Source: a virus. Taken from it: a stretch of DNA of 64,000 nucleotides. The first letter of the stretch is position 1. Each line of letters begins with the position of its first letter. This document shows positions 8,068 to 64,000 of the stretch, piece after piece. The stretch spans positions 1-64,000 of the IMG/VR virus record IMGVR_UViG_3300049491_000350, one strand, 5' to 3'. Both the position numbers and the translations under genes were made by a program. The notes under the pieces were generated by a model. That model was not told where the DNA came from, ran no database searches, and worked only from the letters and a program-made list of their open reading frames with translations.

Positions 8068-8355
8068 ATGTTTCATCTGTTCATTCACACCAAAGGAAAA
8101 TTAAAAGGCAAATATGATTTTGCTTTTATCGAAGGCTCAAAGTACATCTGCGGCAGCAGGCAGGGCTATGAGAATTTTTATGATGCCATGAAAGAGATTT
8201 ACAGGATTGGCACATCGTTCTTTCAGTTCAACCCTACCTTTCAGGACGACACTGAATTTACATCTGTTGTAAAGATGATGAAGAAGCCTGCTGGCAAAGG
8301 AAGGATTACAACTGTCGTATTAAACACTACCCCTAAAAAAGCGTATGCTGCATAA
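8068..8355 (+). CDS. Hypothetical protein, weak YegP/DUF1508-like pattern
   Basis: F.LF...KGKYDFAF....ICGSRQGYEN..DA...I. Confidence 0.45.
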   Translation: MFHLFIHTKGKLKGKYDFAFIEGSKYICGSRQGYENFYDAMKEIYRIGTSFFQFNPTFQDDTEFTSVVKMMKKPAGKGRITTVVLNTTPKKAYAA

Positions 8356-8673
8356 ATGGGGGAGCTTGTCAAAATATATGACAGGGTAAAAGAACTACTT
8401 GAGCAATATCCTTTTTACAGGGATAACGATAACGCTCTGGTATGCAGGATATGGACTATTGAGCTTGGCGGAGATGCGGTCATCAAACAGATGACCGCAT
8501 TTGATTTTATGGCAGAGTATGCTAAGGACAAATTGACTTCATCTGAATCTATATACAGGGCTAAAAGAAAGGTGATGGAGAACCATGAGGAACTGCGTGG
8601 CAAGTCGTATAGGCGCAGGCACGACCTTGAGGACGGTGCTATTGACGACATCATTGACCTAAACAATAAATAA
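8356..8673 (+). CDS. Hypothetical phage protein
   Basis: 105 aa; RDND..L...IW and ESIYRAKRK...LRG pattern. Confidence 0.65.
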   Translation: MGELVKIYDRVKELLEQYPFYRDNDNALVCRIWTIELGGDAVIKQMTAFDFMAEYAKDKLTSSESIYRAKRKVMENHEELRGKSYRRRHDLEDGAIDDIIDLNNK

Positions 8674-9703: not shown

Positions 9704-10084
9704 ATGAAAAAGATAATCGTTTTTATTTTGATGGCAATTCCATTTGCCTGTGCTGCACAAACTCCGTCTCTGAATTTCAGGACAAACACCAGTACGCTCA
9801 TATATCCCGGCGGCACTGACACCATAATGACCATAGAGCTTTATGTGGACGTGTCGGTAACTGATTCTACGGTAAGGATACAATACGTTGGCGATTCAAC
9901 GTACAAGGAATTTTATAAAACTAAATACGTTGGGTATGACCCCAAAGGCGAATGGTTTATCAGTGAGATAATTGGAGAGCCATCAAAGAAATTCATCTGG
10001 GTTCACAAGAAACGGATAGAGATAGATGTAGTTCAGGATGGAGGCCAGAGGCAGTCTTATTATTCTCTCATTGTAAAACAATAA
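9704..10084 (+). CDS. Exported protein (Sec signal peptide)
   Basis: MKKIIVFILMAIPFACAA|Q. Confidence 0.65.
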   Translation: MKKIIVFILMAIPFACAAQTPSLNFRTNTSTLIYPGGTDTIMTIELYVDVSVTDSTVRIQYVGDSTYKEFYKTKYVGYDPKGEWFISEIIGEPSKKFIWVHKKRIEIDVVQDGGQRQSYYSLIVKQ

Positions 10085-16514: not shown

Positions 16515-16850
16515 ATGAAACATACGCTACTATCAATCGTTTTACTTTTCGCCTTGACGGCAAATGCCCAACAAGCAACCAAAGAAAAAGTGCCAGAGTT
16601 GAATCCGCTTATTTGGCATACGGTGTGGGAATGGAAGCCTATCAGATGGGCTGACTTTCCGCCAACTTCCAACAGGCCTATTTATTGGTATAATGATAGT
16701 ACCTGCGGAGGCAATGTTGTTTTTTCAAATTTAACGCTGGCGGATTTCTTTACACAACAGCCAGTTGTGATAAGAAATGATTCATGTACGTGCGACACTA
16801 AATTCAGGTGTGAAATGGGTGCGCCGTATGGGAAATGTATTTACCAGTAA
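16515..16850 (+). CDS. Exported protein (Sec signal peptide)
   Basis: MKHTLLSIVLLFALTANA|Q; Cys-rich C-terminus. Confidence 0.6.
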   Translation: MKHTLLSIVLLFALTANAQQATKEKVPELNPLIWHTVWEWKPIRWADFPPTSNRPIYWYNDSTCGGNVVFSNLTLADFFTQQPVVIRNDSCTCDTKFRCEMGAPYGKCIYQ

Positions 16851-48400: not shown

Positions 48401-51400
48401 GGCAATTACTTCGGCGCAGTAAATAATATATCAAGGCGTATGGGTGTCCAGTACAATGGCATGGAGAGGGATGAGTACAACCGGGTAGTAGAACCTGCGG
48501 CTAATAATGCTGGCAGGTTTTCAACGTTCAATATAAAAGATGGCGATGAAATTGTTTTGCCAAACAATGAGAAGATGACTGTCGTTAGCGCAGATGAAAA
48601 CAGGATAGTAATGGATGATGGCTCTGGCAAAAACGATTTGATTTTTGACGGCAAATCAGAATTTGAAAATGTTTTTATACCTACCTTTTTTTCTGGCAAC
48701 AAACAGTTTGCCCAGCTTAACCCAACTATACATGCACAGGCTGTACAGTTCAGGAAGAAACTGCTTAATGAGCCTAACGCTGACGTACATAATATTGCTG
48801 TTAATTATGTACGGAACAATGGCATTGCCAACGATATTGATACAAGGCCAGTTACTTCCCTTAACGAAAAAGAATCTGCGGATAGAGCCAAAAGATTTGA
48901 GCAGGTTGTACATGCGCCAAAGGAGAAGGCTACAATAGATTCATACGAAGCCCTTAAAAAAGAAACGCTTGCACAATGGAATGCGATTACGGATGCAGGT
49001 TATAACCTTGAGCTATGGAGTGGCAAGGGAGAGCCTTATTCTTCTTCTAAGGCAATGACCGATGACGTTAGGGAGAATAAACATTTATGGATACTGCCTA
49101 CACTGAATGAGTTTGGCAGCAATGAAGATTTTGATGCCAGCGAAAACCCATTGCTTGAAAAGACAGGCATGGTTGCCAGTGGCATGGAGCTTACTTATAA
49201 CGATGTGTTCCGGGGCGTACATGATTTCTTTGGCCATGCCCATATTGGAAACCAGTTTGGTGCTATTGGTGAGGAGAACGCATGGAGGTCTCACTCTCAA
49301 ATGTATTCCCCTCTGGCAAGGAAAGCTATGACGATGGAGACCCGGATGCAAAACTCATGGGTGAATTTCAGTGGAGAGAATGTTGCAGCATTGAACTTGT
49401 TCAAAGAAGCTGCAACGCTGGAAAAACAGTCAAAGGATAAGAGCGGCAATATTATTGACCGTGATAAATATGAGCAGTCTATTGCGCTTAAAAAGGAAGC
49501 ACAGTTGAAATTTAAGTTTGCAGACCAGAAGGTAGCTGTGGCATCCGATGAAGATGTGCAGATGAGAGGTGCTTACGATAATGTACAGGAAGGGCTTGAC
49601 CAGCCATCAAGTATAACCCAATACAAGAAAGGTGAAACTGTTTCACTTGCAGACTTACAAAACGAGTGGCCTGTAACTAACGAAGGGATGGTTGATATGT
49701 TCCAGTGGGGCAAGTCTCAAGATGTACAGATTGGATTCCGGGCAATGCGCCAGACCGATGGCATTGCCTTTTACAATCCTTTAAGCGATGAGATATACTT
49801 CAACGTTAGCCATCCTGAATTTAAGAGCCTGACAGTTGCAGATACACAGGAGTTCTTGGCACATGAGCTTATCCATAAAGCTGCCCACTATTCTTTTGAA
49901 AACAACCCGGAGCTTGCTGGTGAGTTCAATAAGGATGCAGGCAAGGTGATTGCCTTCTTGAAGCAGCAGGATATAACCAAACTTGATGCCACCACACAGA
50001 AGTACATCTCGTTCATGCTTGAAGATAACGCAGACCCACAAGAGCTTATCACGTATGGTATGACTAATCCTTATATAGCGCAATGGTTTGCATCTCTTGA
50101 ATACAATGCCAGCGAACAGGGGCAAAAAAGCGGTAGCGTATGGCAGTGGATGAAAGAAAAAATATTACGCTTTGTAAGCAATATAGTTAAAGGTAAAAGC
50201 GTTTTAGATGAGACAGCCAGACTGCTTGATAAATATGTGAAGTTTGGGCTTCAAACAAGAATGAGTGAACGTGAACAATTGCATAGCCAGATATTAGAAC
50301 AGTTGAATAACTCAACTGTTCCCGACACTATGAAGATTGGCATTCGCAGTGCGCCAGCAGAAGATGTAATCAATTTCATTTACGAACAGGCTACCAATAC
50401 TACTAACGCAGATGGGCAATTGTATAGCGGCAGGGAAGCTCTTGAGCAGCAGTTTGGAAAGGAACTTGTTGATAGGGTAGTTGATTATAAGCAGCGTGAA
50501 ATATCTGCACCACTGGCTGCTAACAAACCTCTGGAAGGCAAACCTGAAAGGCTCGACAATGAAAGCGCATTTGATTATGCCAAGAGGGTACGTGAATGGT
50601 ACAACAAAGCAAGGCAGGACAAAGAGCTTGATTCAAAAGACAGGCGCAAGGCGCAGGTTGAATCCATAGAGGAACGTGATTACCTTGCCCACATACGGGA
50701 TGGGGTAGCCCTGTTGAAAATCAATGCAGGCATAAGCATAGAAGATTTCAACAAGCAATTGAATATCCCTGCGGATAATCTTGAGACCTATATAGCATCG
50801 CTGCAACAGTTGACAGAAGATAAAGAGGATGCTGCTGCAAACAAAAATGCGAAGGCTGTACTTGATGCTTTGCGCCAGCAATACCCGGAGAGGGTAACTA
50901 TGACAGAGGTAGAGCTTCTCCGTAAGCAATACAATGCCTACAACAATGGATACCGCAAGGCAATGAATACTGCCAGAAAAAACCTGTCTAAGGCTACCAA
51001 AGAGTTCAACGAAAATTATAAACTGCTAAAGGCATACAAGAATGCAGAGCGGCAGCAGATGGCTGCTGACCTTAAAGGTAAATCTGCGGCTGAAAGAAAC
51101 GAGTTGATAAAAAAGAAAAATGAGGAACGCAGGCAAAAAGTCTTAGCTCTTAAAGATAAGATGGAGCAGGCGAAGAAAGATTATGAGCAGAAGGTTGCTG
51201 ACATCAAAGACAGGAATAAATACTTCCGAGATAAGGTTGCTGATATTCTTACTGACCTGTACAAGTCTGGCGCACTGAAAGGAGTAACATTCACTGAACA
51301 AGAATTATTGCAACTTGCCGCTACTGCTGGCAACGTATATACGAACAAGACATTTAAAAAACTGCAACAGGTAATAGACAAGCTGATAAACAAAGCTGAC

Positions 51401-54400
51401 TATTATAATAAACTTACTGATGCAAGGAAAGCCCAGAGAGAAGCAAAGCGTATAGTTAAGAGCGGCGTGGTTACACAGAATGACATAGCTGTTATTAAAG
51501 AACTAACTGGCATGAATGTGTCTGACGTAACTGATTTGGATAAGTACCTAAGCATACTGAAAGACTTTAACGACAGCAGGGTTGTAAAGACTTCGCCTAT
51601 TCGCCAGTACACTAACGATGCTATATCTGATTTCATTACAACAGAAAAAGACGCACAGCTTGGCAATTACAGGCAGGAGATAAAAGACGAAATGGATGAC
51701 CTTAAATCATCTCTCGATTATACTGTTGCATCTCAAACAGTTTCCATTACTGCGCCAGATGGAGTTGATATTGAAAAAGAAATAAACGGCATTATCGCTT
51801 CCAATGAAATGTCTTTTGGTGAAAAGAGAAAAGCGATTGGCGAAATTGACAATGCTGTTGCTGGCCTGTCATCAAAAATAAGTGAGACCCTTGACGGCAT
51901 CAATACAGATGCCATTGTATTTGACGATATAAGGAACTCTGCTGACGATACAACCTCTCCACAACACGAAGGGCTGATTACTGCGCTTGAAGATGTGATG
52001 GCTGCACAGCAGGCTATAATTGATTTAGACGACACTTCCCTGACAGATGAACAACGGTATAAATTAAAAGTATTGAAAGATGTGGTGCTTGACGGCATGG
52101 ATGCAAATGAGCTTCGTTTGTTTTCCAATGTTCTTAATAATTACATTGACAACAATGACGATAGCGGATTTGATTATATCGAATCAATTTATCTGGCACA
52201 GGAGAGCGTAAGGGAAATGACAGACTACATGCTGGATAACCATATTGTTTTAAAGGACAACGCATACGATGGAAAGGTGCTGGGTAAAACATTTGAATCG
52301 CTGTCAAGCGTGGAGCAGGTGTTCCTTCACATAGCAAACTCTGGTGCAGTGTTCACATCAAAGTTATTTAATTGGGCTGGCGTAAACAAGTTTCAACAGC
52401 AGGCGCAAAAAGCGTACAATCATTATCGTGAACAATTTCAAACACCACTTGAGGAGATATTGAACAGGAACAAAAAGGAAATGGATATACATGCCAATAC
52501 CCGGATGCAGGTGTTCAGCATATTAAACCAGTCTATTCAAAATTCCAGCTTATTGGAAAAGAATAAAGAGTTGCTGAAAAGGATTGATGAAATGTATTCT
52601 GATATTGGCATAAAGCGTCAGGGCAATAATCAGGAAAAGGCCGAAGCTGAAATAGAATACGCACAAGTTGAATCCCTTCGCTTGCTTGTTGCAGACAGGG
52701 CAGGTATTGATTGGGCAGATGCAGACCAGCGCAAGCTGCTTACTAAAGAAATCTTTGATAATTCAACTGGCGAATATTTAGACCCAGCAGAGAAAGAGGT
52801 GTACGCACTGGTTCAGAAATTCTATGGCGATACCAAGCAGACATTCCAGCAGACAATGAACGGATTACTGAATGAGAAGTTTGAGGCTTGGGATAATTAC
52901 AGCCCTGATTCATTCAGGAATCTTAATGGCGGCGTAGTTGCAGTGGATGAGAACTCATGGAAGGGTTCAGCATTTGCTGCTCAACAGAACGGGTACACGC
53001 TTACTGGCGGAGCAACAAACCAGCGTGTCAAGGGAAACAGGGTGCGGCTTGCAAAGGTTGGCGATAACCAGAGGGTGTTCAGGATGGATTATCTTGGCCT
53101 CAATGGTAAGAACATAATGTCTATGCTGCATGACGTGTACACTGCTAAAGAGCGCATGGTTATGTATAACGTATTGAAGTCAGAGGACTTCATCAAAAAC
53201 GTTGGAACATCGAACCATGAGACGATGAAGAAAACAATTACTCGCCACGTAAACAATGAGGTTGGATTACAGAAGCTGGAACAGGATGCGGTTAGTAAGA
53301 ATATAAGGGCTGTTGCAAATGAAGTTGGGCAACTTGCCACCAAGCGTCAGCTATATTCATTCTCTGCATTCGTTAAGCAAAGCATATCCGCATACTCAAA
53401 TACGGCAGTGTACATGGCATTGAACGGCAGCATGGATTCTTTTCTTGAAGGTGTACGTGCTGCGGCAAATGACTTGGATGCAAATGAATTGCTGCATGGC
53501 CAGCAGGTAGGAAGGAGGGGAGAGACAAAGGCAGGCCTCAATATCTTTAATGATTTCAATAAAGAGAAAGAGCTTGCAGCGCAGGATAAAGATAAATCTG
53601 TTTTCAAAAAATACTACGACAAGGTGGTGCATGGTGAAAACAAATACACTGGCGAAAGGGCAAAGCGTATGGGGTACTTCATTGAGAAGGGCGATGTGGT
53701 TGCCGCCAGAGGTTCTTGGCTTGCCTATTACGCACAACACCTTGTTAAGAATGGCGTGGTTACAAACGCTTCTGATATTGATTGGGCTAACGAGAACCAG
53801 AACCCTAATCAGGAGGCTGTGTCATACGCACAGATAATGACCAGTAATGCAATGAACGTAAATGCAAACTCATCACGCAGCGAATTTCAGCAAAGCACTT
53901 CTGGTGGTCTGGTGTTTGTTAAGGCGATGCTTGCTGCATTCAGTTCATTCCAATTTAATAAAAGCGTCAGCCTGTTCAACAACTTGCGCTCCCTATCTAA
54001 AGGAAGCTATGCCACTATTCTTGATTCTAATGGGCAGGAGCAAATCATTAAGGCATCGGAAGAACAGCGCAAAGATGAAATCAATACATCTTACAAAACA
54101 TTACTGGCATCGCTATCCGAAGAAATGATTTTCAATGCAGCGAAGCTGGGCATAGGGTACACGCTGTATAAAACAATTCCATTCCTGCTTGGCTCACTGT
54201 TTGGAGGAGACGATGATGAAACAAAAAAGAGAAAGAAAATAATCAGCCAAGAAGGGGAGCAATCTTATTGGGATAACGCAGGCATTAAATGGTGGACAAA
54301 TGTATTCAATGGGTTTGCGTTATCAATAATACCAGACATCGCACAGAAGCAATTGAACTCCGGGGTTAACGAAATCGCTAAGGCTTCTGGCGGAGATAAA

Positions 54401-54961
54401 ATATTTTACGAACCGAAACAAAAAAGCGGACAGTCATCACTAATGGGTTCATTTCAGGCAGCAGCACAAGATGTGCCAGAGGACGTATCGAGGCTGTACG
54501 AATATTTATTTAAGCACACAGCCAGCGATGGAAGCCCTGTTACTGTGTCAAGCAAAGACAAAGGGATGGCATTGCTGGGCTTATTGAGCGATGGTGCAGG
54601 CTTTACTGGATATGGAGACGCAGACCTTAACAGGGTGCTACATGCCCACATCAAACAGGCGCAGGTAGATAACGATGCAAATTTCAAGAAGCCTTATACT
54701 ATCCTTATGAACGACCCGGACAAGGGGCGTGTGGTAACAGTGAACAAAGAGAAGATAGAATTGACTGATGACCAGACCGATTTCTTTAATGATAAAAGGA
54801 AGGAGTATTTTGACAAGATGCCTAAGACTGTCATAGACGCAATGGATAAAAACGAGACCGTTAAGCAACGAATGAATACAGCCGCCACTACGTTTGCGAA
54901 AGCTGCAACCATGCTCAAGTATGGGGAGCAGATACGGGAAGCCATAAAGAAAGCGAAGTAA
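45449..54961 (+). CDS. Giant ejection/polyvalent protein with zincin-like motifs
   Basis: 3170 aa; duplicated DFMKS.GVEGLP N-terminus, Gly/Ala segment, FRGVHDFFGH domain (about 49220), AHELIH (about 49862), long coiled coils. Confidence 0.75.
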   Translation: MDEKLQSIYDFMKSQGVEGLPEFQQFKTDFAANPETQRSTLDFMKSKGVEGLPDIGQFSNDIGVKKKDGGTDLSNGDSMEGTQKDTATSGSEESGSNTFDFYKAIDPMGFMRGGLELDYDGVKIPVTSFDIPQPPDSRPYPERLGQFDTGEYNKAFVGEIQNYLTDDKYIGSPERQKAQEYVQNIRLKNAYRNDAFSFSDVSMAEAQRFADRYGVELGTELNGDYFQKVKALKDKVNADTKEQYTEHRVQGRSDLPYEVFNDNGYKNDADNNTINNLFERLSSKMADRGTADDAKDVVVQYADQRTIFEKGMDYASPVYGAASSAVNNALLFGSKKIDANFITGLNQRKLADPVEYARIAKQIANGEPVASNDYFRLTNVGLSINNSDNLEGLSTGKQTIEDFISNHRGIMQQSSDLLLNTKDVLKSAIADELGSRLDEKAEKESLLGNNVTGSYMYSDEEINAALPAALQSIGVNKDDPRVVDAINSIKGDEGWMVGMNGVKKGGLVRELFKGAAQPFRGIAAWGDSFGKPLSQEYNEAKNQQLSTYTEQRPESMKGTVLNTLSDAVYGLGQFASQAGLAYAGGEIVGGIGALAGGVGEAGAAAATETAAARGALSGLDAAAESIAADAVSAGSKIGNYLLRNREAISTFATGYLQSYDSNLKTTLQMTEDDASAKLGAQFLAAMEGASELILPDVKLGREIIGGFKKEAIPGLLKNISENILKKGVDKNAWAKVGEYAGKRLLSAAATTGQEIAEEEITQLANYATNVVLNPKQAGNRDLGDELFKTAVSTAVSMSIPAFLRSGGGNHNTGLDNNKAALVLASANLTTIQDYINTAVSKGMMNPDEASAKMQIVNTAHSIASQMPANKNDGTKMNITERAEYLYSRTKEAALADAITKTTDDVLKERYKKEIAEEQALRKGLIEKTETRFDGKYLSDKERNIFVNKQSELARIDTRLAENPDDKTLVRQRNSLRSDIYRIRDGNYFGAVNNISRRMGVQYNGMERDEYNRVVEPAANNAGRFSTFNIKDGDEIVLPNNEKMTVVSADENRIVMDDGSGKNDLIFDGKSEFENVFIPTFFSGNKQFAQLNPTIHAQAVQFRKKLLNEPNADVHNIAVNYVRNNGIANDIDTRPVTSLNEKESADRAKRFEQVVHAPKEKATIDSYEALKKETLAQWNAITDAGYNLELWSGKGEPYSSSKAMTDDVRENKHLWILPTLNEFGSNEDFDASENPLLEKTGMVASGMELTYNDVFRGVHDFFGHAHIGNQFGAIGEENAWRSHSQMYSPLARKAMTMETRMQNSWVNFSGENVAALNLFKEAATLEKQSKDKSGNIIDRDKYEQSIALKKEAQLKFKFADQKVAVASDEDVQMRGAYDNVQEGLDQPSSITQYKKGETVSLADLQNEWPVTNEGMVDMFQWGKSQDVQIGFRAMRQTDGIAFYNPLSDEIYFNVSHPEFKSLTVADTQEFLAHELIHKAAHYSFENNPELAGEFNKDAGKVIAFLKQQDITKLDATTQKYISFMLEDNADPQELITYGMTNPYIAQWFASLEYNASEQGQKSGSVWQWMKEKILRFVSNIVKGKSVLDETARLLDKYVKFGLQTRMSEREQLHSQILEQLNNSTVPDTMKIGIRSAPAEDVINFIYEQATNTTNADGQLYSGREALEQQFGKELVDRVVDYKQREISAPLAANKPLEGKPERLDNESAFDYAKRVREWYNKARQDKELDSKDRRKAQVESIEERDYLAHIRDGVALLKINAGISIEDFNKQLNIPADNLETYIASLQQLTEDKEDAAANKNAKAVLDALRQQYPERVTMTEVELLRKQYNAYNNGYRKAMNTARKNLSKATKEFNENYKLLKAYKNAERQQMAADLKGKSAAERNELIKKKNEERRQKVLALKDKMEQAKKDYEQKVADIKDRNKYFRDKVADILTDLYKSGALKGVTFTEQELLQLAATAGNVYTNKTFKKLQQVIDKLINKADYYNKLTDARKAQREAKRIVKSGVVTQNDIAVIKELTGMNVSDVTDLDKYLSILKDFNDSRVVKTSPIRQYTNDAISDFITTEKDAQLGNYRQEIKDEMDDLKSSLDYTVASQTVSITAPDGVDIEKEINGIIASNEMSFGEKRKAIGEIDNAVAGLSSKISETLDGINTDAIVFDDIRNSADDTTSPQHEGLITALEDVMAAQQAIIDLDDTSLTDEQRYKLKVLKDVVLDGMDANELRLFSNVLNNYIDNNDDSGFDYIESIYLAQESVREMTDYMLDNHIVLKDNAYDGKVLGKTFESLSSVEQVFLHIANSGAVFTSKLFNWAGVNKFQQQAQKAYNHYREQFQTPLEEILNRNKKEMDIHANTRMQVFSILNQSIQNSSLLEKNKELLKRIDEMYSDIGIKRQGNNQEKAEAEIEYAQVESLRLLVADRAGIDWADADQRKLLTKEIFDNSTGEYLDPAEKEVYALVQKFYGDTKQTFQQTMNGLLNEKFEAWDNYSPDSFRNLNGGVVAVDENSWKGSAFAAQQNGYTLTGGATNQRVKGNRVRLAKVGDNQRVFRMDYLGLNGKNIMSMLHDVYTAKERMVMYNVLKSEDFIKNVGTSNHETMKKTITRHVNNEVGLQKLEQDAVSKNIRAVANEVGQLATKRQLYSFSAFVKQSISAYSNTAVYMALNGSMDSFLEGVRAAANDLDANELLHGQQVGRRGETKAGLNIFNDFNKEKELAAQDKDKSVFKKYYDKVVHGENKYTGERAKRMGYFIEKGDVVAARGSWLAYYAQHLVKNGVVTNASDIDWANENQNPNQEAVSYAQIMTSNAMNVNANSSRSEFQQSTSGGLVFVKAMLAAFSSFQFNKSVSLFNNLRSLSKGSYATILDSNGQEQIIKASEEQRKDEINTSYKTLLASLSEEMIFNAAKLGIGYTLYKTIPFLLGSLFGGDDDETKKRKKIISQEGEQSYWDNAGIKWWTNVFNGFALSIIPDIAQKQLNSGVNEIAKASGGDKIFYEPKQKSGQSSLMGSFQAAAQDVPEDVSRLYEYLFKHTASDGSPVTVSSKDKGMALLGLLSDGAGFTGYGDADLNRVLHAHIKQAQVDNDANFKKPYTILMNDPDKGRVVTVNKEKIELTDDQTDFFNDKRKEYFDKMPKTVIDAMDKNETVKQRMNTAATTFAKAATMLKYGEQIREAIKKAK

Positions 54962-55051: not shown

Positions 55052-55525
55052 ATGGCAGACATTACAAAAGGGGCGAAGATATTGGGTATCGCCTCAAAAG
55101 AAGTTGGATATACTGAAATCCCTGCTAACACTAACAAGACAAAATACGGAAAGTGGTTTGGCTTTGATGGTGTTGCATGGTGCGGCATATTCGTTAGCTG
55201 GTGTTATTTCATGGCTGGATTCCCGTTGCCTAATATCGGGTTTTCAAAAGGCTATGCAGGATGCCAGACTGCGGTTGCTTTCTTTAGAAAGAAAGGCTGG
55301 ATTGTAACAGACCCACAGGAGGGCGACATTGTTTTCTTTGACTGGAATAACGATGGCAGGTATGACCACACAGGATTGTTTAAAAAACGACTGGATGAAA
55401 GCCATTTCTCAACCTACGAAGGCAACACTTCCTTGACTAACCAGAGCAATGGCGGTCAGGTCATGGAAAGAAAAAGAACGTTTGGCGCAGGCGTGGTATT
55501 TGTCCGCATACCTAATTCAAAATAA
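55052..55525 (+). CDS. CHAP-domain endolysin
   Basis: TKYGKWFG...AWCGIFVSW, PQEGDIVFFDW, DHTG, EGNTS. Confidence 0.9.
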   Translation: MADITKGAKILGIASKEVGYTEIPANTNKTKYGKWFGFDGVAWCGIFVSWCYFMAGFPLPNIGFSKGYAGCQTAVAFFRKKGWIVTDPQEGDIVFFDWNNDGRYDHTGLFKKRLDESHFSTYEGNTSLTNQSNGGQVMERKRTFGAGVVFVRIPNSK

Positions 55526-55538
55526 TCCCTTTAAATAA

Positions 55539-55841
55539 ATGGCAATGAAACTGAAAACATTTGAGTACACGATTCTTGACGGAGAATTACTGCCATGTTC
55601 TAAAGAGATTGTAATAGACCTTGATAAAACAGATATAGTAGGCATCAGGAAAGGGAGCGTATTGAGCGGCGTTCAGTACATAGAAAAGACTGCACTGTTT
55701 ATTGTGTTCAATGACCATTCATACGGCAACGAAGCAATTAATACCTCTGACTTTATTGACACATCAAACCAATGCTGCGGTGCTAAAGATGCAGGGTCTC
55801 AAGATTTTGACGACACCGACTTTAATGACGATTTTAATTAA
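55539..55841 (+). CDS. Small protein with acidic DFxxDF C-terminus (candidate fibre adaptor)
   Basis: Ends NQCCG...DFDDTDFNDDFN. Confidence 0.55.
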   Translation: MAMKLKTFEYTILDGELLPCSKEIVIDLDKTDIVGIRKGSVLSGVQYIEKTALFIVFNDHSYGNEAINTSDFIDTSNQCCGAKDAGSQDFDDTDFNDDFN

Positions 55842-55863: not shown

Positions 55864-57030
55864 ATGAAACAGATTCTAATTGCAACACTTATTTTAACAA
55901 GCGTATTTTCTTTTGGGCAAACCCCAACGGCTACACTAAATGATGCAAAGACTTATATCAATGCTAATATAAAAAGCAATGGGCTTAACAGTATCACTGG
56001 CGCAAAGCTCAATACAGCTATGACTAAGTTGAGCAACGCTGTAATGGGTACTGTTGATTCTCTTGGTACGGAGGTTAAAGCTGTTGGCATAGACGTTAGC
56101 TCTATATCCTCAACTGTTAGTACGCATACGGGGCAGATTTCAACTATCAACGGACAAATCTCTACAATCAATTCTTCAATAGCATCACTTATTCCACTGC
56201 CATCGCAGTCCGGGCAGAGCGGAAAGTACCTTTCAACTGATGGAAGTAATTTGAGTTGGCAGGCTGCAAGTGGCGGCGTTCCATACACAGGAGCGACAGG
56301 CGATGTGAATTTAGGCAGCAATAATTTTACTGCCGCAATTGGAACTTTTAATAATTTCATCAACACTTCCGGCGGCATTATCGTAGGAAATAACTTTAAT
56401 ATAATCCCTGACGGAGGAGGGCTTATGAGATGGGCAACTGGCAGTGGTGCTATAGTTCAAAATTTTAGTGGGGTTGGCTTCCCTACAAAAACAGTTACAT
56501 GGCAAAACCAAAGCGGTACGGTTGCGGTAGTAGGAACAACAGTAAATACATTCCTTAATACTCCTACCAGTGCGAATCTATTAGCTGCGCTTACGACAAA
56601 GACAGGAACAGGCAACGCTGTGTTCGGTACGCTTCCAACTCTTGCAGGCTTCAATACTCCGCAGGCAGGAACAACGGCAACTGATGGATGGAATTTGGGT
56701 ACAGGGCAAGCAATATTTAGAAGCACCGCTACAGCTATTACTATTACAGGCTCAAAACTGATGTTTGATTTTACAAATACAACGGCAGGTACTACTGGCA
56801 ATCAAACAATTAATAAGCCAAGCGGCAGTGTAAATATTGCTACTGGCGGTTCTTCTATAACTGTTACTAATAGCTTAGTTAATGCTGCATCAAAAGTGTT
56901 CGCAACTATTGCAACCACAGGCATGACAATTTCGGTGGCAAGCATTTCTAAAAATTCAGGTTCTTTTACAGTTACCCTGACAGGGGTAACGAGTTCGGAG
57001 ACTATCATTGATTTTTTTGTCATCAATTAA
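55864..57030 (+). CDS. Tail-fibre-like protein with signal peptide
   Basis: MKQILIATLILTSVFSFG|Q; coiled coil; LPSQSGQSGKYLSTDG, VPYTGATGDVNLG, FLNTPTSANLLAALT..TGTG fibre motifs. Confidence 0.7.
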   Translation: MKQILIATLILTSVFSFGQTPTATLNDAKTYINANIKSNGLNSITGAKLNTAMTKLSNAVMGTVDSLGTEVKAVGIDVSSISSTVSTHTGQISTINGQISTINSSIASLIPLPSQSGQSGKYLSTDGSNLSWQAASGGVPYTGATGDVNLGSNNFTAAIGTFNNFINTSGGIIVGNNFNIIPDGGGLMRWATGSGAIVQNFSGVGFPTKTVTWQNQSGTVAVVGTTVNTFLNTPTSANLLAALTTKTGTGNAVFGTLPTLAGFNTPQAGTTATDGWNLGTGQAIFRSTATAITITGSKLMFDFTNTTAGTTGNQTINKPSGSVNIATGGSSITVTNSLVNAASKVFATIATTGMTISVASISKNSGSFTVTLTGVTSSETIIDFFVIN

Positions 57031-57058
57031 AATATTTTAAAATTTAAACAAACGCAAA

Positions 57059-57772
57059 ATGAAAACAGTAAAGTTTCAACAGACAACAGTTATCACCGAC
57101 AATGAAACAGGTGAAGAAATTTCAAGAGATGTAGTTGAGCGTTGCTATGACGTTCATGTTCAAATGAACAAGGCTAATACAATGCCTTACGCCAAACTTG
57201 TATCCATTGCCTGCAACAATGCTGGTGAAGGAGGCGGCAATAACAATGAGCCACCAAATGACAATGGCGGCGGCAACAACAACCCTCCTCCTGATGCACC
57301 ATTGCCAGCCATAGAGCTTGCTTATGAGTTTGTGCTTGACCCGGCATGTGATTACACAAACAGGTTTCCAAATTTAAGGGTGGGCAATGCTATCCCAATC
57401 AGCAATGCTTCTGGCAACGGACTTGAGTGGACACCAGATGGCAGGTACACAGGTTTATTAAGTGCTGGTGCGACAGAAAATACAACAGACCAAGAAGGCC
57501 TGACTGGTACTAAAACAATCGAGAGGGTTGACGACCCTAACGCTTATGTTGCTGTTTTGATGTCGCCAAAAAGGTTTGTTAACCAGTACGACCCGAATGC
57601 TTTGGACGGCCGCACACCTGTTGGGAATGCTGATTACAGGCCTGTTGAAATACTCGAAGATGGCGTGTTGGCAACAGACTGGACTTATATAGAGGAAGGT
57701 AACAATGTTGTTTACTGGAAAAAATTTCCTAATGACATTGTTAGCATCCCATCATTAACATTCAATGTTTAA
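57059..57772 (+). CDS. Hypothetical structural protein
   Basis: Short N-domain, G/N/P linker, beta-rich C-domain; no signal peptide. Confidence 0.55.
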   Translation: MKTVKFQQTTVITDNETGEEISRDVVERCYDVHVQMNKANTMPYAKLVSIACNNAGEGGGNNNEPPNDNGGGNNNPPPDAPLPAIELAYEFVLDPACDYTNRFPNLRVGNAIPISNASGNGLEWTPDGRYTGLLSAGATENTTDQEGLTGTKTIERVDDPNAYVAVLMSPKRFVNQYDPNALDGRTPVGNADYRPVEILEDGVLATDWTYIEEGNNVVYWKKFPNDIVSIPSLTFNV

Positions 57773-57778
57773 TTGATT

Positions 57779-59170
57779 ATGAAAAAGTTAAAATGTTTTA
57801 TTTCAGCAGTGCTGCTCTTATTGAGCAGCACCTGCTTTTCACAAACTCCAACGGAGCTTATTGATTCGATGGAACGGCAGGTGAATAACGACATCGTATT
57901 TAATACCACTGGTGCAATTACATCTGCCAAAGTAAACCTTGCCTTTGCAAATGTCGCAAGGGCATTAAGGGCTTTAAGGGATACCAGTAACGGCGTAACC
58001 TATCCTATTGGCGTGGATGAAAACGGCGACCTGTTTATATATCAAAGCTGGGTTGATAGCCTCTTTGCTGATGCGAACCCGGCAACTAACACAGGCATTG
58101 TACAGTTCTCTGGTTTGTATCTTGGCAACGATACTTTGTACGCTAATATGGCCTCGCCATTGATATACAAAATTAATGGCAGCACATTCATCCGTTCAAC
58201 AGAATGGAACACGGTTGTAACCGGGGCATCCCCAAGCCATTACAGGACAGATATTATTTACATCAATGCGCTTGAGGAAATAGTTTACGAGGCTGGCGTA
58301 GAGAATACTGATGCTGGGCTTGCGGTTGCGCCTACACCGCCATCTGATGTCGTAGTGCTTGGTTACATGAGTGTGTTTGAGGAATCGCTGCTTGTTATTC
58401 CTGTTCCCCCATTGTACCAGCGAAATGGAGTTTTGTATGTTGATGGCAATGCTAATGTTGTAACAGACAGTACAGATTTTACTTATCAAAACACCTCTAC
58501 ATTTTCTGACTTAGAGATAGGAAAGAAATTTGCTTTTTCAAATCAGACAAGGTTTGGGTTGCATGGCGGAAGGGCAAAGATAATTGGCTCTGCATTTGGG
58601 ATGCAGATAAATGTTGGTAGCGGAGAGAGTGGTGTGCCAGACCCATCGAAGCATATTGTATTTGGCAACAGGGGTACAGTCTTTGGTGAATTTGGTTGCT
58701 CTGTTAACGCAGCACCATTTTATAACTGGTTCAAGTTAACAGATACTGCCACCGTTTTTGCTTTAAAGAAAAAAGATGTTGTTACAGACTTGGCAACAGC
58801 AGATGCGGTGTGGCACAATGATACTTTAAAGTCAAGGCCAATAACCTATCACAAATGGGTAGGGCTTGTATCGCAGACAGGTACTGCTGACCCGGTAGCT
58901 ATCACTTTAGAGAATACATTCCCGGCAGGCTTTGAGCCGCAATGGCATAGGGTAGGGCTGGGCAATTACGATGCAACAAACCTGTCAGGAGTAGCAGCTA
59001 AGAGGGTGGTATTTGTATCGCCGCTTGAATCAGGCAATCGTGTGTCTGTTTACAATCAGGTAAACAATAAGGTAATATTCTCTACGTGGACAGAGGCAAG
59101 CAGCTACGCAACAACGTGGTCTGACGGGCTGCTTACCAATTGGAGCGTAACCATAATACAATACTTCTAA
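57779..59170 (+). CDS. Tail-fibre-like protein with signal peptide
   Basis: MKKLKCFISAVLLLLSSTCFS|Q; N-domain similar to 55864; RTDIIY...P.PP; SQTGTADP...LENT...W.RVGLGNY C-domain. Confidence 0.7.
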   Translation: MKKLKCFISAVLLLLSSTCFSQTPTELIDSMERQVNNDIVFNTTGAITSAKVNLAFANVARALRALRDTSNGVTYPIGVDENGDLFIYQSWVDSLFADANPATNTGIVQFSGLYLGNDTLYANMASPLIYKINGSTFIRSTEWNTVVTGASPSHYRTDIIYINALEEIVYEAGVENTDAGLAVAPTPPSDVVVLGYMSVFEESLLVIPVPPLYQRNGVLYVDGNANVVTDSTDFTYQNTSTFSDLEIGKKFAFSNQTRFGLHGGRAKIIGSAFGMQINVGSGESGVPDPSKHIVFGNRGTVFGEFGCSVNAAPFYNWFKLTDTATVFALKKKDVVTDLATADAVWHNDTLKSRPITYHKWVGLVSQTGTADPVAITLENTFPAGFEPQWHRVGLGNYDATNLSGVAAKRVVFVSPLESGNRVSVYNQVNNKVIFSTWTEASSYATTWSDGLLTNWSVTIIQYF

Positions 59171-59205
59171 AATATTTTATAATCAAACAAAAAAGGAGAA
59201 TTTTT

Positions 59206-62200
59206 ATGAAACAACTAAGGCTATGGAGTTTAGCTCCGCTTATTATGATTGCGGTGTTTCTGTCCGGGCTGACAACAGCATCGGCACAAGCACCGTATTT
59301 GTCCTGTGATTCGTTCTGGGCTGCGAACAACAAGACGTGCAGTGGACGGCTCAACTTTAATTCAAGTGGTTTATCATCAGCTACCACAGGGATGAAACTG
59401 ATTGACACATTAAGTGAAAGGTGGATACGCAGTTATGTTGACAGAAGCCTGCCGAAGATTGGATTGAATTACAGGGATGAGTTCAAGCAAGTGAAGGTTG
59501 AGATACCTGACAGCGCAGTGGCGCAAAAGTTTTTTATGTTTGACTACTACGCAGTTGACTATGCTTATGACAGCAGGAACTCATTGTGGTGTCAGTTCAA
59601 ATACGGAGACTATTATCCGCAGCTTTCATTAGGTGTGCGCCCCATAAGTGGCGCATTGTGGCTTTGTATTGTAAGGCAATACGACACAGCAACCGCAGGT
59701 ACACACGTACCAAAGGTTTCTATTATCACACCCGTACAACCTATCGTATCAAACCAAAAGCAGAATATAATTTTTGAAGTAAACTGGCAGAGCAACTATA
59801 CCGGGTATGTTAAATTATATATTGACGGCGTTTTAAAAGCAACAGTCAATGGCCCGAATATGGATAAGTCATACAATATGTCTCAAAGGTCTTACCCTCC
59901 ATTCAGGCTTGGCAACTATCAGTTTACATGGGGCGATATAGCAACAGCACCAGCCATTACAAAACGCACTGTATTATTCAGGCATGTAGTTATTGGTGGG
60001 CAGAATATGAACATCAATCAATTGCTCCCTACGCCATCAGTACCTTCTGCATTGCAGTTAAATACATCTTCCATTACTACTGCATCATACAGGCAAGGCG
60101 GCGTACAGGCATCTGGAACAGTGTTCAACATCAAGGGCAGCAACCTTACTAGCTTCCCCGGCAATGTAACAATAACCGGAAGCACCCACTATGAAGTATC
60201 TGCAACATCTGCAACTACCGGGTTCAGCACCAGCGTAACAGTACCATACACATCTGCAACGCTTGCACAAAAGAATCTATGGGTGAGGTTGAAGTCTGGA
60301 TTATCCAGCAGTGTATATAATGCGGAAACAATATCATTTGCAAATGTTGATACAACAATATACTTGACCGTTAATGGGCAGGTGCTTGCTGCAAGCGGCA
60401 CAAACTATTACATATCTAATGCAGGTAGCGATGTTGCTGCTGGCACATCTACCGGAACTGCATGGCAAACTATTAGTAAACTGAATGCTATGTCTGGTGC
60501 GTTCTCGTCAGGAGACAGCATCTTCTTCCATCGTGGCGAAACATACTTTGGTGCTGTGAATGTAGGCAGCAGCAATTTGTATTTTGGTGCTTATGGTTTA
60601 GGAACAAGGCCTGTAATTTCTGGCTTCGTAACTGCTGGCTCATGGGTTGCTGATGTAATGACTGGCGTATGGAAAACACCAGTGAATGCAAAAAACAATT
60701 TGATTATGGTAACTAAGGATGGCAAGCCGCAGCAGATAGGCAGATACCCTAATGCTGATGCAACCAATCATGGATACCTTACGTTTGAGGGCTTCAACAC
60801 TGGCTACATAATTGACAGCCAGTTGACATCTGCTACCAACTGGACAGGCGCAGAGCTTCTGTTAAGGGGCAATGACTGGAATATTGACCGCACTATCATT
60901 ACGTCTCATTCTGGAAACAGATTGAATTACAGGGTAGGTAGGGGCGTTAGTTCATGGATAACACCATTGTTATCTATTGTAAAAGCCAATTACGGATACT
61001 TCATACAGAACGACAAGCGTACACTTGATAAGGCAGGCGAATGGTGGTATGACAGCACTGGAAAATACATCTATATGTACTCTGGCGTATCTGCGCCATC
61101 TGGCGTTAAAGTTTCTGTGATTGATACGCTGATGAATTGCAGAAACAAAAACAATATAACTATTTCGGATATTGATTTTGACGGTGCTAATATGTCTGCT
61201 ATTTATTTAAAGGATGCCAGTACGCTTACTGTTAAGAACAGCAACATCACAAACTGCGGAGCTAAAGGTGTTCATGTTTATAATACATCTGACGTTCTTG
61301 TTCAGGCTGTATCGTGTAATAACATTTTAAGCAATAGCATTTATGTCAACTCAAAAACTAAAAACAATGTAGCTATCAGGGCTTGCGCTATTAAAAACAA
61401 TGCGCCACTGGTAGGCATGGGTAGTTACTTTGAATACAACGACAACAAAGCAATCGTTGGCGTAACAAACAATTTAACTATTGAGGACAACTCTGTTGAC
61501 AGCACCGGGCTTAACGGTATTGACTGGAACGGCTCAAACGTTTTGATTCAGCATAACACCGTAAAGAATTTCTGCCTTGAACTGCATGATAACGGAGGCA
61601 TATATACTTACTTTGATATTAATGGTGGAAGCACCAACATTGCTCTTACAAACAGGGTGATAAAAGAAAATACTGTGTTGTATGGGTATGGCAATTTCAA
61701 TGGCACTCCCAGAGGAACTAACAGCGATGCAGCAGATGGAGGCGCAGGTGTTGCAGGCATCTATCTTGATGGCATAACAGCTAACGTTTCTGTGGTAGAT
61801 AACAACATTGGTTTTGTTGGCAAGAATGGTATCCATACCAATAACCCAATGAACATAACCATCACTGGCAATGTAATATGGGCTGCAAGGAACTACATAT
61901 CATTCATGGTGTGGCCTTATGGTGTTGTTGGAAACCTGCGGATAACAGGCAACGTCCTGTTCCCAAGAAACGACAGTGAGAATTTGTATTACTATACCAA
62001 TGCAAAATACTCTCCGCCTCTTGGATTGAATTTGCAGAACCTTGCATTCATAGACAGCAATTACTATTCCCTTTACAATGAGGCTGGTTTTGTTACAGAA
62101 TTTTCTAATGCTGGCAATATTATAAAGTCATCTCCTTTGAGTTATGATTCTTGGAGGGCGACAACCGGGTTCGATGCAAACAGTTATACATCTGTACGGA

Positions 62201-62889
62201 AGCCTTCATACAAAGTAACCAGTATGGTAAGCGCAAACAAAGCATCCAATGCAGGAACATTTAATTCTAACATTACCGGGTACACTGTTTATGGAACAAG
62301 CACCACTGGCTTATGGGATAATACCAACAAGATAAATGGTGGCAGCTTGAAATTCAATTTCACTGCGCCTCAAGCAGGAAGGTTTAGTTTTGTGCATTCG
62401 CCTGTTGGCGCAATAAGCAGTGCTAAAAAGTACCTGCTTAGGTACACAACGCTTGGTACAGGCTCTGGCATTACTAATGCTTATATCAGGAGGACAGCTT
62501 CTCCATACGAGAGCCTTACCCCTGTACAGAGAGGGGTATTCGGTGCTGTTGTAAAGACGCATGAGTTTTTATTCACTGCACCAACTACCGTTACAGCAGG
62601 CAGTATTGTGATTGCTATTGACCAGTCGAGCGGAGCTACTTACCTTGACAACATTCAGTTCTACGAAGTGAATGCAACGCTCCTTGATGTACTCTCTGAA
62701 ATCAGGTATGAGTACAATGATACAGGCGCAGAAAAAGTAATCACGACCTCAAGGAAATACATAACGGCAGCAGGCGAATCTATTAACGGAAAGATTACCA
62801 TGCCACCGTACTCAAGTATGATGTTCATTGATAACGGAGCAGCTACTTCGACAGCTACAAGCGGCAGGATTTTTAACAAGTATCAGTAA
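59206..62889 (+). CDS. Modular polysaccharide-degrading protein (lyase-like jelly roll, Ig-like, right-handed beta-helix, CBM-like) with signal peptide
   Basis: Signal ...TTASA|Q; VNW...GYVKLYIDG...FRLGNY; YYISNAGSD..GTS...AWQTI, GDSIFFHRGE, DNGGIY, GIYLD. Confidence 0.75.
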   Translation: MKQLRLWSLAPLIMIAVFLSGLTTASAQAPYLSCDSFWAANNKTCSGRLNFNSSGLSSATTGMKLIDTLSERWIRSYVDRSLPKIGLNYRDEFKQVKVEIPDSAVAQKFFMFDYYAVDYAYDSRNSLWCQFKYGDYYPQLSLGVRPISGALWLCIVRQYDTATAGTHVPKVSIITPVQPIVSNQKQNIIFEVNWQSNYTGYVKLYIDGVLKATVNGPNMDKSYNMSQRSYPPFRLGNYQFTWGDIATAPAITKRTVLFRHVVIGGQNMNINQLLPTPSVPSALQLNTSSITTASYRQGGVQASGTVFNIKGSNLTSFPGNVTITGSTHYEVSATSATTGFSTSVTVPYTSATLAQKNLWVRLKSGLSSSVYNAETISFANVDTTIYLTVNGQVLAASGTNYYISNAGSDVAAGTSTGTAWQTISKLNAMSGAFSSGDSIFFHRGETYFGAVNVGSSNLYFGAYGLGTRPVISGFVTAGSWVADVMTGVWKTPVNAKNNLIMVTKDGKPQQIGRYPNADATNHGYLTFEGFNTGYIIDSQLTSATNWTGAELLLRGNDWNIDRTIITSHSGNRLNYRVGRGVSSWITPLLSIVKANYGYFIQNDKRTLDKAGEWWYDSTGKYIYMYSGVSAPSGVKVSVIDTLMNCRNKNNITISDIDFDGANMSAIYLKDASTLTVKNSNITNCGAKGVHVYNTSDVLVQAVSCNNILSNSIYVNSKTKNNVAIRACAIKNNAPLVGMGSYFEYNDNKAIVGVTNNLTIEDNSVDSTGLNGIDWNGSNVLIQHNTVKNFCLELHDNGGIYTYFDINGGSTNIALTNRVIKENTVLYGYGNFNGTPRGTNSDAADGGAGVAGIYLDGITANVSVVDNNIGFVGKNGIHTNNPMNITITGNVIWAARNYISFMVWPYGVVGNLRITGNVLFPRNDSENLYYYTNAKYSPPLGLNLQNLAFIDSNYYSLYNEAGFVTEFSNAGNIIKSSPLSYDSWRATTGFDANSYTSVRKPSYKVTSMVSANKASNAGTFNSNITGYTVYGTSTTGLWDNTNKINGGSLKFNFTAPQAGRFSFVHSPVGAISSAKKYLLRYTTLGTGSGITNAYIRRTASPYESLTPVQRGVFGAVVKTHEFLFTAPTTVTAGSIVIAIDQSSGATYLDNIQFYEVNATLLDVLSEIRYEYNDTGAEKVITTSRKYITAAGESINGKITMPPYSSMMFIDNGAATSTATSGRIFNKYQ

Positions 62890-62909: not shown

Positions 62910-63179
62910 ATGAACCGCTTTAGTTTGCAATTGCGTGATTGGCTGAAAGGTTTAATCATCGCCGTAGGTACACCAGTGTTGTATTTAATGCAAGAGTTGA
63001 TTCCAAACTGGAATCTTACTCCAATCGAAAAGGCTGCGCTGTCAGCATTTGTAACTTACATGCTGAAAAACCTTTTCACTGATGATGTAAAGGCTGCAAA
63101 GAAAACACTGGTTAAGGCAAAGGAAATCGAGAAAAAGGCAGAGGAAAAGCAGCAGCAGAAAAATGATTACCCAGAGTAA
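62910..63179 (+). CDS. Holin-like membrane protein
   Basis: DWLKGLIIAV...AALSAFVTYMLKNLFT; two hydrophobic segments and a charged tail. Confidence 0.55.
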   Translation: MNRFSLQLRDWLKGLIIAVGTPVLYLMQELIPNWNLTPIEKAALSAFVTYMLKNLFTDDVKAAKKTLVKAKEIEKKAEEKQQQKNDYPE

Positions 63180-63262: not shown

Positions 63263-63640
63263 ATGAATGCAAACGACAAAATTTTAGCAGGATTGATTTT
63301 ACTTTCTTTCTGCTGTTCGTTGGTCGCTCTTTTTTTTGGAAAGAACAACGACTTCAAGACCGGGTTAAAAATGTTATTCGGAGGGTTCTTCTTTGGGTGT
63401 GTTTCTGCCTACGTTGTACATGATGGTACATTTTTTGAATGGATTAAGCGGCTTGTAGTTTTGCTGACAAGCATGTTTGGCAAGCCACTGTACGATAAGA
63501 TTAGCATAAGGATTGGAGCTTGGCTTGATAAGATAGTAACAGCAAAGGTTGATTCGGTTTCTACCTCTATTAAATCTGAACCGCAAGATGAAACAAAAAC
63601 ACTAAACAAAACATCAAGCAATGACACTTCTAATAGTTAA
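63263..63640 (+). CDS. Holin-like multi-TM protein
   Basis: Three hydrophobic segments and a polar C-terminus. Confidence 0.5.
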   Translation: MNANDKILAGLILLSFCCSLVALFFGKNNDFKTGLKMLFGGFFFGCVSAYVVHDGTFFEWIKRLVVLLTSMFGKPLYDKISIRIGAWLDKIVTAKVDSVSTSIKSEPQDETKTLNKTSSNDTSNS

Positions 63641-64000
63641 CGGCATATTTTTCTTGGTATGCTCCCTCTTTGGAATGTACAGCATGTACAAAAACGATTG
63701 CATCATAACAAACAGATGGCTGTTCCTGACGGGATGGTTTTTGTTTGTTTGTACCATCAGCCTGTCTGCTATCAACTTCCTAAATTATTTTACAGCGCAG
63801 GGTATAATCAGTTTTAGTTTTGCTACACTTGGCATAGGGCTACGTGCAAGCGTGTCTGACTATGTTACAGGTGGGGCAACAATATTATTTGCATTGTATT
63901 TATTTTCGCTCCGTAAAAAATGTATGAATGCAGAGTACCTTCCGAGGACATTCAGGATATGGATAACAAGGTGGTGGCACTCATTCAAATACAGGCGGCA
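63621..64000 (+). CDS. Membrane protein, truncated by window end (not in ORF track)
   Basis: MTLLIVNGIFFLVCSLFG...; open to the end with three hydrophobic segments. Confidence 0.55.
   Translation, partial: MTLLIVNGIFFLVCSLFGMYSMYKNDCIITNRWLFLTGWFLFVCTISLSAINFLNYFTAQGIISFSFATLGIGLRASVSDYVTGGATILFALYLFSLRKKCMNAEYLPRTFRIWITRWWHSFKYRR

Follow-up and report, generated by a model that had tools for sequence, protein, structure and literature searches.

The DNA considered here is the initial 64 kb (64,000 nucleotides; hereafter the window) of an IMG/VR virus record, IMGVR_UViG_3300049491_000350, which is 82,750 bp long and carries inverted terminal repeats. It comes from an uncultured freshwater phage of about 83 kb, in which nearly all genes as far as about 65.5 kb are on the + strand. 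At the end of the late operon, the gene for a 3170-aa protein is followed by a CHAP endolysin gene, a 100-aa open reading frame (ORF), p1, a 237-aa ORF, p2, p3 and the genes for three small membrane proteins. An earlier interpretation made from the letters alone (the sequence-only reading) had proposed that p1, p2 and p3 encode tail fibres and a depolymerase that begin with basic-hydrophobic leaders ending before a Gln residue. The three ORFs and their N-termini were found to be as described. Here we present the evidence that their products are exported, and consider whether they become parts of the phage particle.

The N-termini, as read from the translations, are MKQILIATLILTSVFSFG↓QTP for p1, MKKLKCFISAVLLLLSSTCFS↓QTP for p2 and MKQLRLWSLAPLIMIAVFLSGLTTASA↓QAP for p3, where the arrow marks the predicted cleavage site. 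The three leaders are alike in having a basic n-region, an uncharged hydrophobic core of 8-15 residues, small residues at positions −3 and −1, and Gln at +1. Substrates of signal peptidase I in Bacteroidota follow a Q-rule, that is, they carry Gln at +1 (PMC5837995, PMC10653852), and the leaders of p1-p3 are predicted to be of the Sec/signal-peptidase-I type obeying this rule. They were judged by eye from the N-termini and by our own heuristic scan of the ORFs, which picked p2 and p3; for p1 the scan took an upstream in-frame start. Lipoprotein status was ruled out for all three, as none has a lipobox Cys where cleavage is predicted. The mature p1 protein contains no Cys at all and mature p2 contains one. 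Leaders of this kind are present on only about 8 of the 106 ORFs in the genome, six of which have Gln at +1. Besides p1-p3, these include three small proteins encoded outside the late operon (7062-7544, LFC↓QC; 9704-10084, CAA↓QTPS; and 16515-16850, ANA↓QQ), which brings the predicted exports of the phage to at least six proteins.

The positions of the start codons are in agreement with the leaders. The ATG of p3 (59206) is preceded at 7 nt by AAGGAG, which follows a palindrome over the p2 stop codon, and the p1 and p2 starts lie no more than 25 nt from the preceding stop codon. The single alternative start of p1, at 55825, retains the leader and merely lengthens its n-region. In the source database, p3 (P0001, 1165 aa) begins at Met63, dropping the leader (59206-59391 of the window). 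However, Met63 has no ribosome-binding site comparable to that of 59206. A downstream true start was therefore ruled out for p3, and the database call is considered erroneous. True starts downstream of the leaders, which would have removed the basis of the sequence-only reading, were thus not found for any of the three genes.

Conservation of the leader was examined among relatives. p2 has no close ones, but HMMER over 1.8 billion representatives recovered 45 distant ones. Among those related to the p2 body, 16 of 17 have a leader ending in small-x-small↓Gln, the remaining one being cut inside the leader. Leader and Gln at +1 are present in both proteins that match the p2 N-terminal module (N-module) alone, and in none of the 26 that match its tip domain alone. 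In an alignment of 13 sequences (A1; mean column identity 22%), Gln at +1 (Gln22) is one of three invariant positions, and internal Met residues are not conserved. The leader is also kept in the four relatives of p3 found in phage contexts (see below). Since such leaders are rare in the genome and the Gln is invariant in so divergent an alignment, the pattern is not due to chance.

A test that does not depend on the leader came from glycosylation motifs (sequons). Bacteroidota O-glycosylate the motif D-S/T-(A/L/V/I/M/T) solely in non-cytoplasmic proteins (PMC12871550). We counted D-[ST]-[AILVMT] in the mature leader-bearing set and in the rest of the proteome. The leader-bearing proteins contain 23 motifs in 2415 residues and the rest 60 in 23,950 residues, corresponding to densities of 9.5 versus 2.5 per 1000 aa (odds ratio 3.8, Fisher p 1e-6). 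From composition, 7.7 motifs would be expected in the leader-bearing set, and none of 300 shuffles reached 23; the rest of the proteome is at expectation (60 versus 60.4), with the three largest virion proteins below half of it. Enrichment is seen for p2 (6 versus 1.8 expected, p 0.006) and p3 (8 versus 3.9, p 0.03). Two of the small proteins with leaders are rich in the motif as well, with 4 motifs versus 0.4 expected in the one at 7062-7544 and 3 in 108 residues in the one at 9704-10084. As this motif is used in the periplasm only, its enrichment suggests a periplasmic location and supports export.

The bodies of p1 and p2 resemble phage fibres, as the sequence-only reading had noted. Over their first 77 residues or so, the two proteins are alike (30% identity, E 7e-8). 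In p1 this N-module (residues ~20-77) is followed by a helical, probably coiled-coil stretch to ~106, a fibre motif and a conserved C-terminal beta domain (Table 1). The p1 strings SGKYLSTDGSNLSW and FLNTPTSANLLAALT, the latter at residues 220-270, are what we take to be typical of tail fibres. The C-terminal domain or the fibre motif occurs in about 40 fibre-like proteins, among them leaderless phage fibres; among 40 such proteins, 15 have a leader with Gln and 23 have none. Neither p1 nor p2 gave a match in Pfam or PHROGs, a PDB sequence search with p1 returned insignificant coiled-coil matches only, and a single-sequence AlphaFold model of p1 (pLDDT 40) was too poor to use. Judged by its motifs and the shared C-terminal domain, p1 is a fibre-like protein.

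p2 consists of the p1-like N-module to ~80, a confident beta-sandwich at ~100-205 and a C-terminal tip domain, which also occurs in leaderless phage proteins. Its AlphaFold model, built from 46 sequences, has a mean pLDDT of 69 and two confident beta-sandwich domains. Against the viral structure library BFVD, this model gave 45 matches at E<=0.001. The best of them (5e-8) is to a tail fibre, that of Olleya phage Harreka_1, and further ones include several models named "receptor binding protein" as well as a Flavobacterium phage lotta8-1 structural protein. A Foldseek search of the PDB with the model yielded nothing significant; its top, insignificant entries are fibres. The language-model neighbours of p2 are tail-fibre clusters, with scores <=0.87 that serve as leads only. 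By its fold matches, p2 is fibre-like too. The p2 profile did not detect the family in 401 Chitinophagaceae genomes (two weak N-terminal matches only), and for this reason the family is probably phage-borne. Four genomes holding p3 relatives also gave no match to the profile.

p3 is a mosaic enzyme, and its look of a spike-type depolymerase was substantiated by domain matches. A Polysacc_lyase-like domain (PF14099) starts soon after the leader, followed by an immunoglobulin-like (Ig-like) module of about 100 residues with the signature SYxLSGxNLT, and then by a core composed of a beta-helix (Beta_helix PF13229, E 7.5e-11) with a GH141_M insertion and an end resembling a carbohydrate-binding module (CBM). 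The Ig-like module is repeated in several secreted Bacteroidota proteins, 3 of 7 with a type IX secretion system (T9SS) domain. Over the core, p3 shares 40-47% identity with proteins from Ferruginibacter, Ginsengibacter, Flavisolibacter, Pedobacter and further members of the Chitinophagaceae and Sphingobacteriaceae. The core relatives span 56 loci, and several paralogues per genome are common. In the bacterial ones the leader is directly followed by the beta-helix. In at least two genomes (L014 and L020), the neighbours of the gene probably encode glycosyltransferases, an assignment made by inspecting their N-termini and with no family search. A T9SS sorting domain was found in 34 of 66 p3 relatives (62 bacterial and 4 in phage contexts) using an ad hoc hidden Markov model (HMM) of the C-terminal domain. 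p3 itself ends 5-12 residues past the shared core, is negative with this HMM and has no PF18962 match at E 0.01, and a T9SS route was accordingly ruled out for it. No particle-binding (docking) domain was recognized in p3, and a PDB sequence search with p3 found no match.

The four p3 relatives in phage or prophage contexts all have the leader and lack the sorting domain. One is on a siphovirus-like IMG/VR contig (L002), where a leader-bearing fibre and enzyme pair lies between capsid and connector genes. Another is at the prophage-like end of a contig from a Ferruginibacter metagenome-assembled genome (L003; JAYRPG010000133.1, 3996-18410), which encodes a leader-bearing 614-aa protein with weak tail-fibre matches, small membrane proteins, the beta-helix enzyme and a tyrosine integrase. 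The remaining two belong to a phage-like locus (L036) with a tail-spike-type protein, an HNH endonuclease and an endolysin. In all three loci, leader-bearing fibre-like proteins adjoin the enzyme. The IMG/VR scans found a relative only for p3 (that in L002) and none with p1, p2, P0058 or P0061; profile A1 had no stretch conserved enough for such scanning. DNA and protein searches with p1-p3 against 50,697 cultured phage records gave no match. In L002 a 136-aa protein encoded directly after the capsid gene (8080-8490) bears a Q-rule leader and matches, below the threshold, Bbp16 (E 6e-5), a Bordetella phage family; an export signal would be unexpected on a protein of head-decoration type.

Table 1. 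Features of the fibre and lysis region (window positions; the last two rows lie beyond the window)
Feature	Position	Strand	Remarks
3170-aa protein	45449-54961		HELIH (HExxH-type) motif; residues 1159-1309 match phrog_3170 (function not known)
CHAP-domain endolysin	55052-55525	+	Pfam CHAP E 4.6e-9; PHROG endolysin families, best E 7e-26; no N-terminal membrane segment
100-aa ORF	55539-55841	+	no leader; acidic Asp/Phe-rich C-terminal tail (DFDDTDFNDDFN); no family match
p1, 388 aa	55864-57030	+	leader, residues 1-18 (55864-55917); fibre motif FLxTPxSANLxxAL, residues 220-270 (56521-56673); C-terminal beta domain, residues 299-388 (56758-57027)
Palindrome TAAAATATTTTA over p1 stop codon	57028-57039	+	20 nt ahead of next ORF
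237-aa ORF	57059-57772	+	no leader; Gly/Asn/Pro-rich linker; no family match
p2, 463 aa	57779-59170	+	leader, residues 1-21 (57779-57841); tip domain, residues ~355-463 (58841-59167)
Palindrome TAAAATATTTTA over p2 stop codon, then AAGGAG	59168-59198	+	palindrome 59168-59179; AAGGAG 59193-59198, 7 nt before p3 ATG
p3, 1227 aa	59206-62889	+	leader, residues 1-27 (59206-59286); lyase-like domain, residues 119-240 (59560-59925); Ig-like module, residues ~283-395 (60052-60390); core, residues ~395-1215 (60388-62850)
89-aa holin-like protein	62910-63179	+	two hydrophobic stretches, charged C-terminus; no family match
Two small multi-pass membrane proteins	63263-64000	+	putative lysis proteins; 63263-63640, and from 63621 beyond window end
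80-aa protein	G000:C1:64058-64300		lipoprotein-type leader (LTGC↓S), hydrophobic C-terminus
280-aa protein	G000:C1:64706-65548		N-terminal membrane anchor, four sequons

The sequence-only reading had placed p1-p3 between the endolysin and holins. The endolysin was substantiated by its CHAP domain; the "holins" are holin-like only, since they match no family, although the 89-aa protein has a relative with 30% identity near the endolysin of L036. As the endolysin has no membrane segment, lysis depends on a holin. The 80-aa and 280-aa proteins at the end of the lysis region are candidates for spanin-like proteins. The two leaderless ORFs alternate with the leader-bearing fibre genes, and the 100-aa one is possibly an adaptor or partner. 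In L002, L003 and L036, too, the leader-bearing fibre genes have small leaderless ORFs as companions, though without sequence similarity. The two palindromes precede the following gene by 20-27 nt and look like a reused junction signal, which might be a promoter, a terminator or a processing site.

The sole component of the phage recognizable by family is the large terminase, TerL (phrog_6681). Its closest cultured relatives, at 24-26% identity, are those of the Flavobacterium "elemo" podophages, of Cellulophaga phages including phi18:3 (Pachyviridae), and of Tenacibaculum and Maribacter phages, with the elemo phages being the nearest. The large late proteins resemble the virion set of phi18:3, verified by tandem mass spectrometry (MS/MS), in size and order: the portal has 818 versus 812 aa, another protein 1569 versus 1612 aa, and a trio 263/500/3170 versus 227/499/1935 aa. 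The 3170-aa protein corresponds by position to gp123 of phi18:3, the 1935-aa virion protein. We regard the phage as being of a divergent short-tailed type infecting Bacteroidota. Because the relatives of the p3 core are found in Chitinophagaceae and Sphingobacteriaceae, and because a Ferruginibacter metagenome-assembled genome carries the prophage-like locus, the host is probably a member of the Chitinophagaceae.

As the leaders are canonical, the starts are sound, leader and Gln are conserved throughout the families and sequons are enriched, we regard the periplasmic export of p1-p3, which the sequence-only reading had proposed, as very probable. For the subsequent steps, we propose the following route. 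p1-p3 would be made late with Sec leaders, exported, and cut by signal peptidase I before Gln. The new N-terminal Gln would probably be cyclized to pyroglutamate by the host glutaminyl cyclase, p2 and p3 would receive host O-glycans, and folding and trimerization would occur in the periplasm. p1 and p2 would be receptor-binding fibres, with the N-module common to them just after the leader acting as a docking or trimerization piece. The holes that canonical holins open in the inner membrane are very large, and the outer membrane is breached only in a later step; for a brief time the particles and the periplasmic fibres would then share one compartment. The fibres might thus meet the particles built in the cytoplasm after the holin has opened the inner membrane and while the outer membrane still encloses them, or in the lysate. 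p3 would be a polysaccharide-degrading enzyme that, having no sorting domain, is retained in the periplasm until lysis, whereupon it degrades capsule or exopolysaccharide as a free or a particle-bound protein. Cleavage, pyroglutamate formation, glycosylation, and the time and place of joining the particles are steps that we infer. For this explanation as a whole, with p1 and p2 as exported, periplasm-matured fibres that join particles at lysis and p3 as an accompanying enzyme, we estimate a probability of about 0.5.

The parallel that bears most directly on this proposal is in phi18:3 (NC_021794), whose TerL is 26% identical to that of the phage studied here. Like p1-p3, its gp085, gp086 and gp087 are consecutive, large, and encoded beside holin-like and endolysin genes. 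Their products start with MKNKITIIMILMSISFGYS↓Q, MKKTIYILSILLLTISGVSA↓Q and MKHTFSIVLFFILSIGLNA↓Q (sites ...GYS↓QV, ...VSA↓QT and ...LNA↓QT), and they are annotated as "virion structural protein", "structural protein" and "tail protein", respectively, "based on experimental MS/MS proteomics analysis". Leaders are absent from the nine remaining virion proteins that MS/MS identified in phi18:3. gp087 carries fibre-like motifs. Unlike p1-p3, however, gp085-087 stand upstream of the terminase, their sequons are low (one each), and they have no Pfam domain and so no evident depolymerase, unlike p3. We found no paper commenting on the phi18:3 leaders. In the elemo phages, the fibre genes come directly after the endolysin gene, a position like that of p1 and p2, and one small protein has the tip domain of p2. 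As the elemo fibre genes share this position and the leader-bearing phi18:3 proteins are annotated as virion parts, p1 and p2 fit the role of phage fibres, and by this analogy we lean towards counting them as virion components; for p3, virion membership is doubtful.

Several points weigh against the proposed route. p1-p3 and gp085-087 have no sequence similarity, the parallel being one of position and architecture only, and the MS/MS evidence for phi18:3 is a record annotation that might include co-purifying proteins. The elemo and Harreka phages use leaderless fibres. p1 shows no sequon enrichment (1 versus 1.2 expected). In p3, the lyase-like domain lies right behind the leader, with no room for a particle-binding domain. 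The fibre and enzyme pair of L002 is located in a head module, as in a mobile accessory cassette. Lastly, p1-p3 are known here from their genes alone; that they join the particle is plausible, least so for p3.

Accordingly, p1-p3 might be exported and yet not be virion parts, forming instead an accessory cassette whose targets are the envelope or neighbouring cells. Such a cassette might strip or block the capsule or exopolysaccharide receptor of the infected cell (superinfection exclusion, or keeping progeny off debris), supply a soluble depolymerase at lysis, or display proteins on the surface of the infected cell in the manner of the MAT (mosaic adhesive trimer) fibres of Bdellovibrio. This is a serious alternative, though we think it rather improbable. 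The p3 core belongs to a bacterial family about half of which has a T9SS sorting domain, with the probable glycosyltransferase neighbours in L014 and L020; p3 has no docking domain; and the leader-bearing pair is found in the head module of L002, an unrelated siphovirus-like contig. In the bacterial predator Bdellovibrio bacteriovorus, the MAT fibres, which resemble phage tail fibres, have a signal peptide, a conserved N-terminal domain directly behind it and variable tips (Caulton et al. 2024, PMC10769870), and prophages of P. gingivalis encode Q-rule proteins thought to be possible host-surface modifiers (Matrishin et al. 2023, PMC10367356). On the other hand, gp085-087 are annotated as virion proteins by MS/MS and are the sole fibre candidates of phi18:3, and p1 and p2 occupy the position of the elemo fibre genes. 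Furthermore, no other fibre-like protein was recognized in this genome (for a 1062-aa protein of the virion region, considered as a possible leaderless fibre, an Atlas search gave weak fn3-like leads only), and p1 and p2 have a common N-module, as in sets of receptor-binding proteins that dock on one adaptor. The claim of the sequence-only reading that the proteins join particles at lysis therefore stands in part: it fits the elemo position and the phi18:3 annotation, but no docking domain was recognized in p3, and the arrangement in L002 would be equally well explained by a cassette.

A second alternative is that the N-termini are not cleaved in the virion form. They might serve as inner-membrane anchors, or internal starts (Met63 of p3, Met31 of p2 and Met53 of p1) might give cytoplasmic isoforms that build the particles while the long forms are exported. 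The choice of Met63 by the source gene caller would agree with this, as would the leader on the sub-threshold Bbp16-like head-decoration protein of L002. In P. gingivalis phages, even major capsid proteins have been noted to carry predicted signal peptides, whose removal was ascribed to the prohead protease (Matrishin et al., PMC10367356). However, small residues at −3 and −1 with an invariant Gln at +1 are sensible only if the protein is cut before Gln, AAGGAG is ideally spaced for 59206 with nothing comparable at Met63, the internal Met residues are not conserved, and the sequon enrichment indicates the periplasm. We consider this alternative unlikely. Finally, that the leaders are chance hydrophobic N-termini or miscalled starts on ordinary cytoplasmic fibres might be argued from p2 being an orphan as to close relatives and from leaders having been judged without a signal-peptide predictor, but it is hardly credible given that leader and Gln at +1 are conserved in distant relatives, that the start-codon context backs the leader starts and that the sequon test does not hinge on the leader.

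To our knowledge, tailed-phage particles are assembled wholly in the cytoplasm. If the proposed route is true, one step of virion maturation occurs in the periplasm, and host modifications (pyroglutamate, O-glycans and perhaps disulfides) sit on the parts that decide host range. More tentatively still, Bacteroidota tailed phages may have a two-compartment line, in which heads and tails are made in the cytoplasm and fibres (and some depolymerases), Sec-exported, pyroglutamate-trimmed and O-glycosylated, are added only after the holin has triggered and before the outer membrane ruptures. If so, the joining step would be timed by the location of the fibre genes within the lysis cassette, and lysis timing would deserve attention if lysis doubles as an assembly step. 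The export signals also matter for the annotation of Bacteroidota phages, in which gene callers clip such leaders, maybe systematically, as the case of p3 illustrates, and for producing the fibres and depolymerases of these phages for laboratory work. phi18:3 is a cultured system suited to a direct test.

Each of the three proteins has counterparts of a known kind. Bacteroidota beta-helix proteins (for example P0002-P0006; PF13229 + PF18962, the sorting domain being present in about half) have, like p3, a Sec leader, a beta-helix and a CBM-like domain. p3 differs from them in having no sorting domain, in its extra lyase-like and Ig-like N-terminal modules, and in being the product of a late operon of a phage; p3 obeys the Q-rule at its cleavage site, while most of the bacterial copies have A↓K/T-NYY. 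Phage tailspikes and soluble depolymerases are beta-helix enzymes that are virion-bound or freed at lysis, and p3 resembles the tailspike depolymerases in being a right-handed beta-helix enzyme encoded by a late gene that adjoins lysis genes. The phage enzymes of this type known to us lack a leader and undergo folding in the cytoplasm; p3 is unlike tailspike depolymerases in having a Sec leader and no recognizable particle-binding domain.

For p1 and p2, the MAT fibres are the cellular counterpart. They are proteins of a predator that recognize prey from the cell surface, and they have no significant sequence or fold match to p1 or p2, although one of the PDB matches to the p2 model that fell short of significance is a MAT tip structure. 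The Q-rule proteins of P. gingivalis prophages, unlike p1-p3, were not described as fibres or depolymerases, and no link to virion assembly was proposed for them. Our literature search found no paper on Sec leaders of tailed-phage tail fibres or depolymerases. p1 and p2 have sequence modules or a fold of the phage-fibre type, yet not the leaderless, cytoplasmic character that goes with them. We conclude that p1-p3 are of known kinds, namely tail fibres and a depolymerase, and that they differ from these in the route they take.

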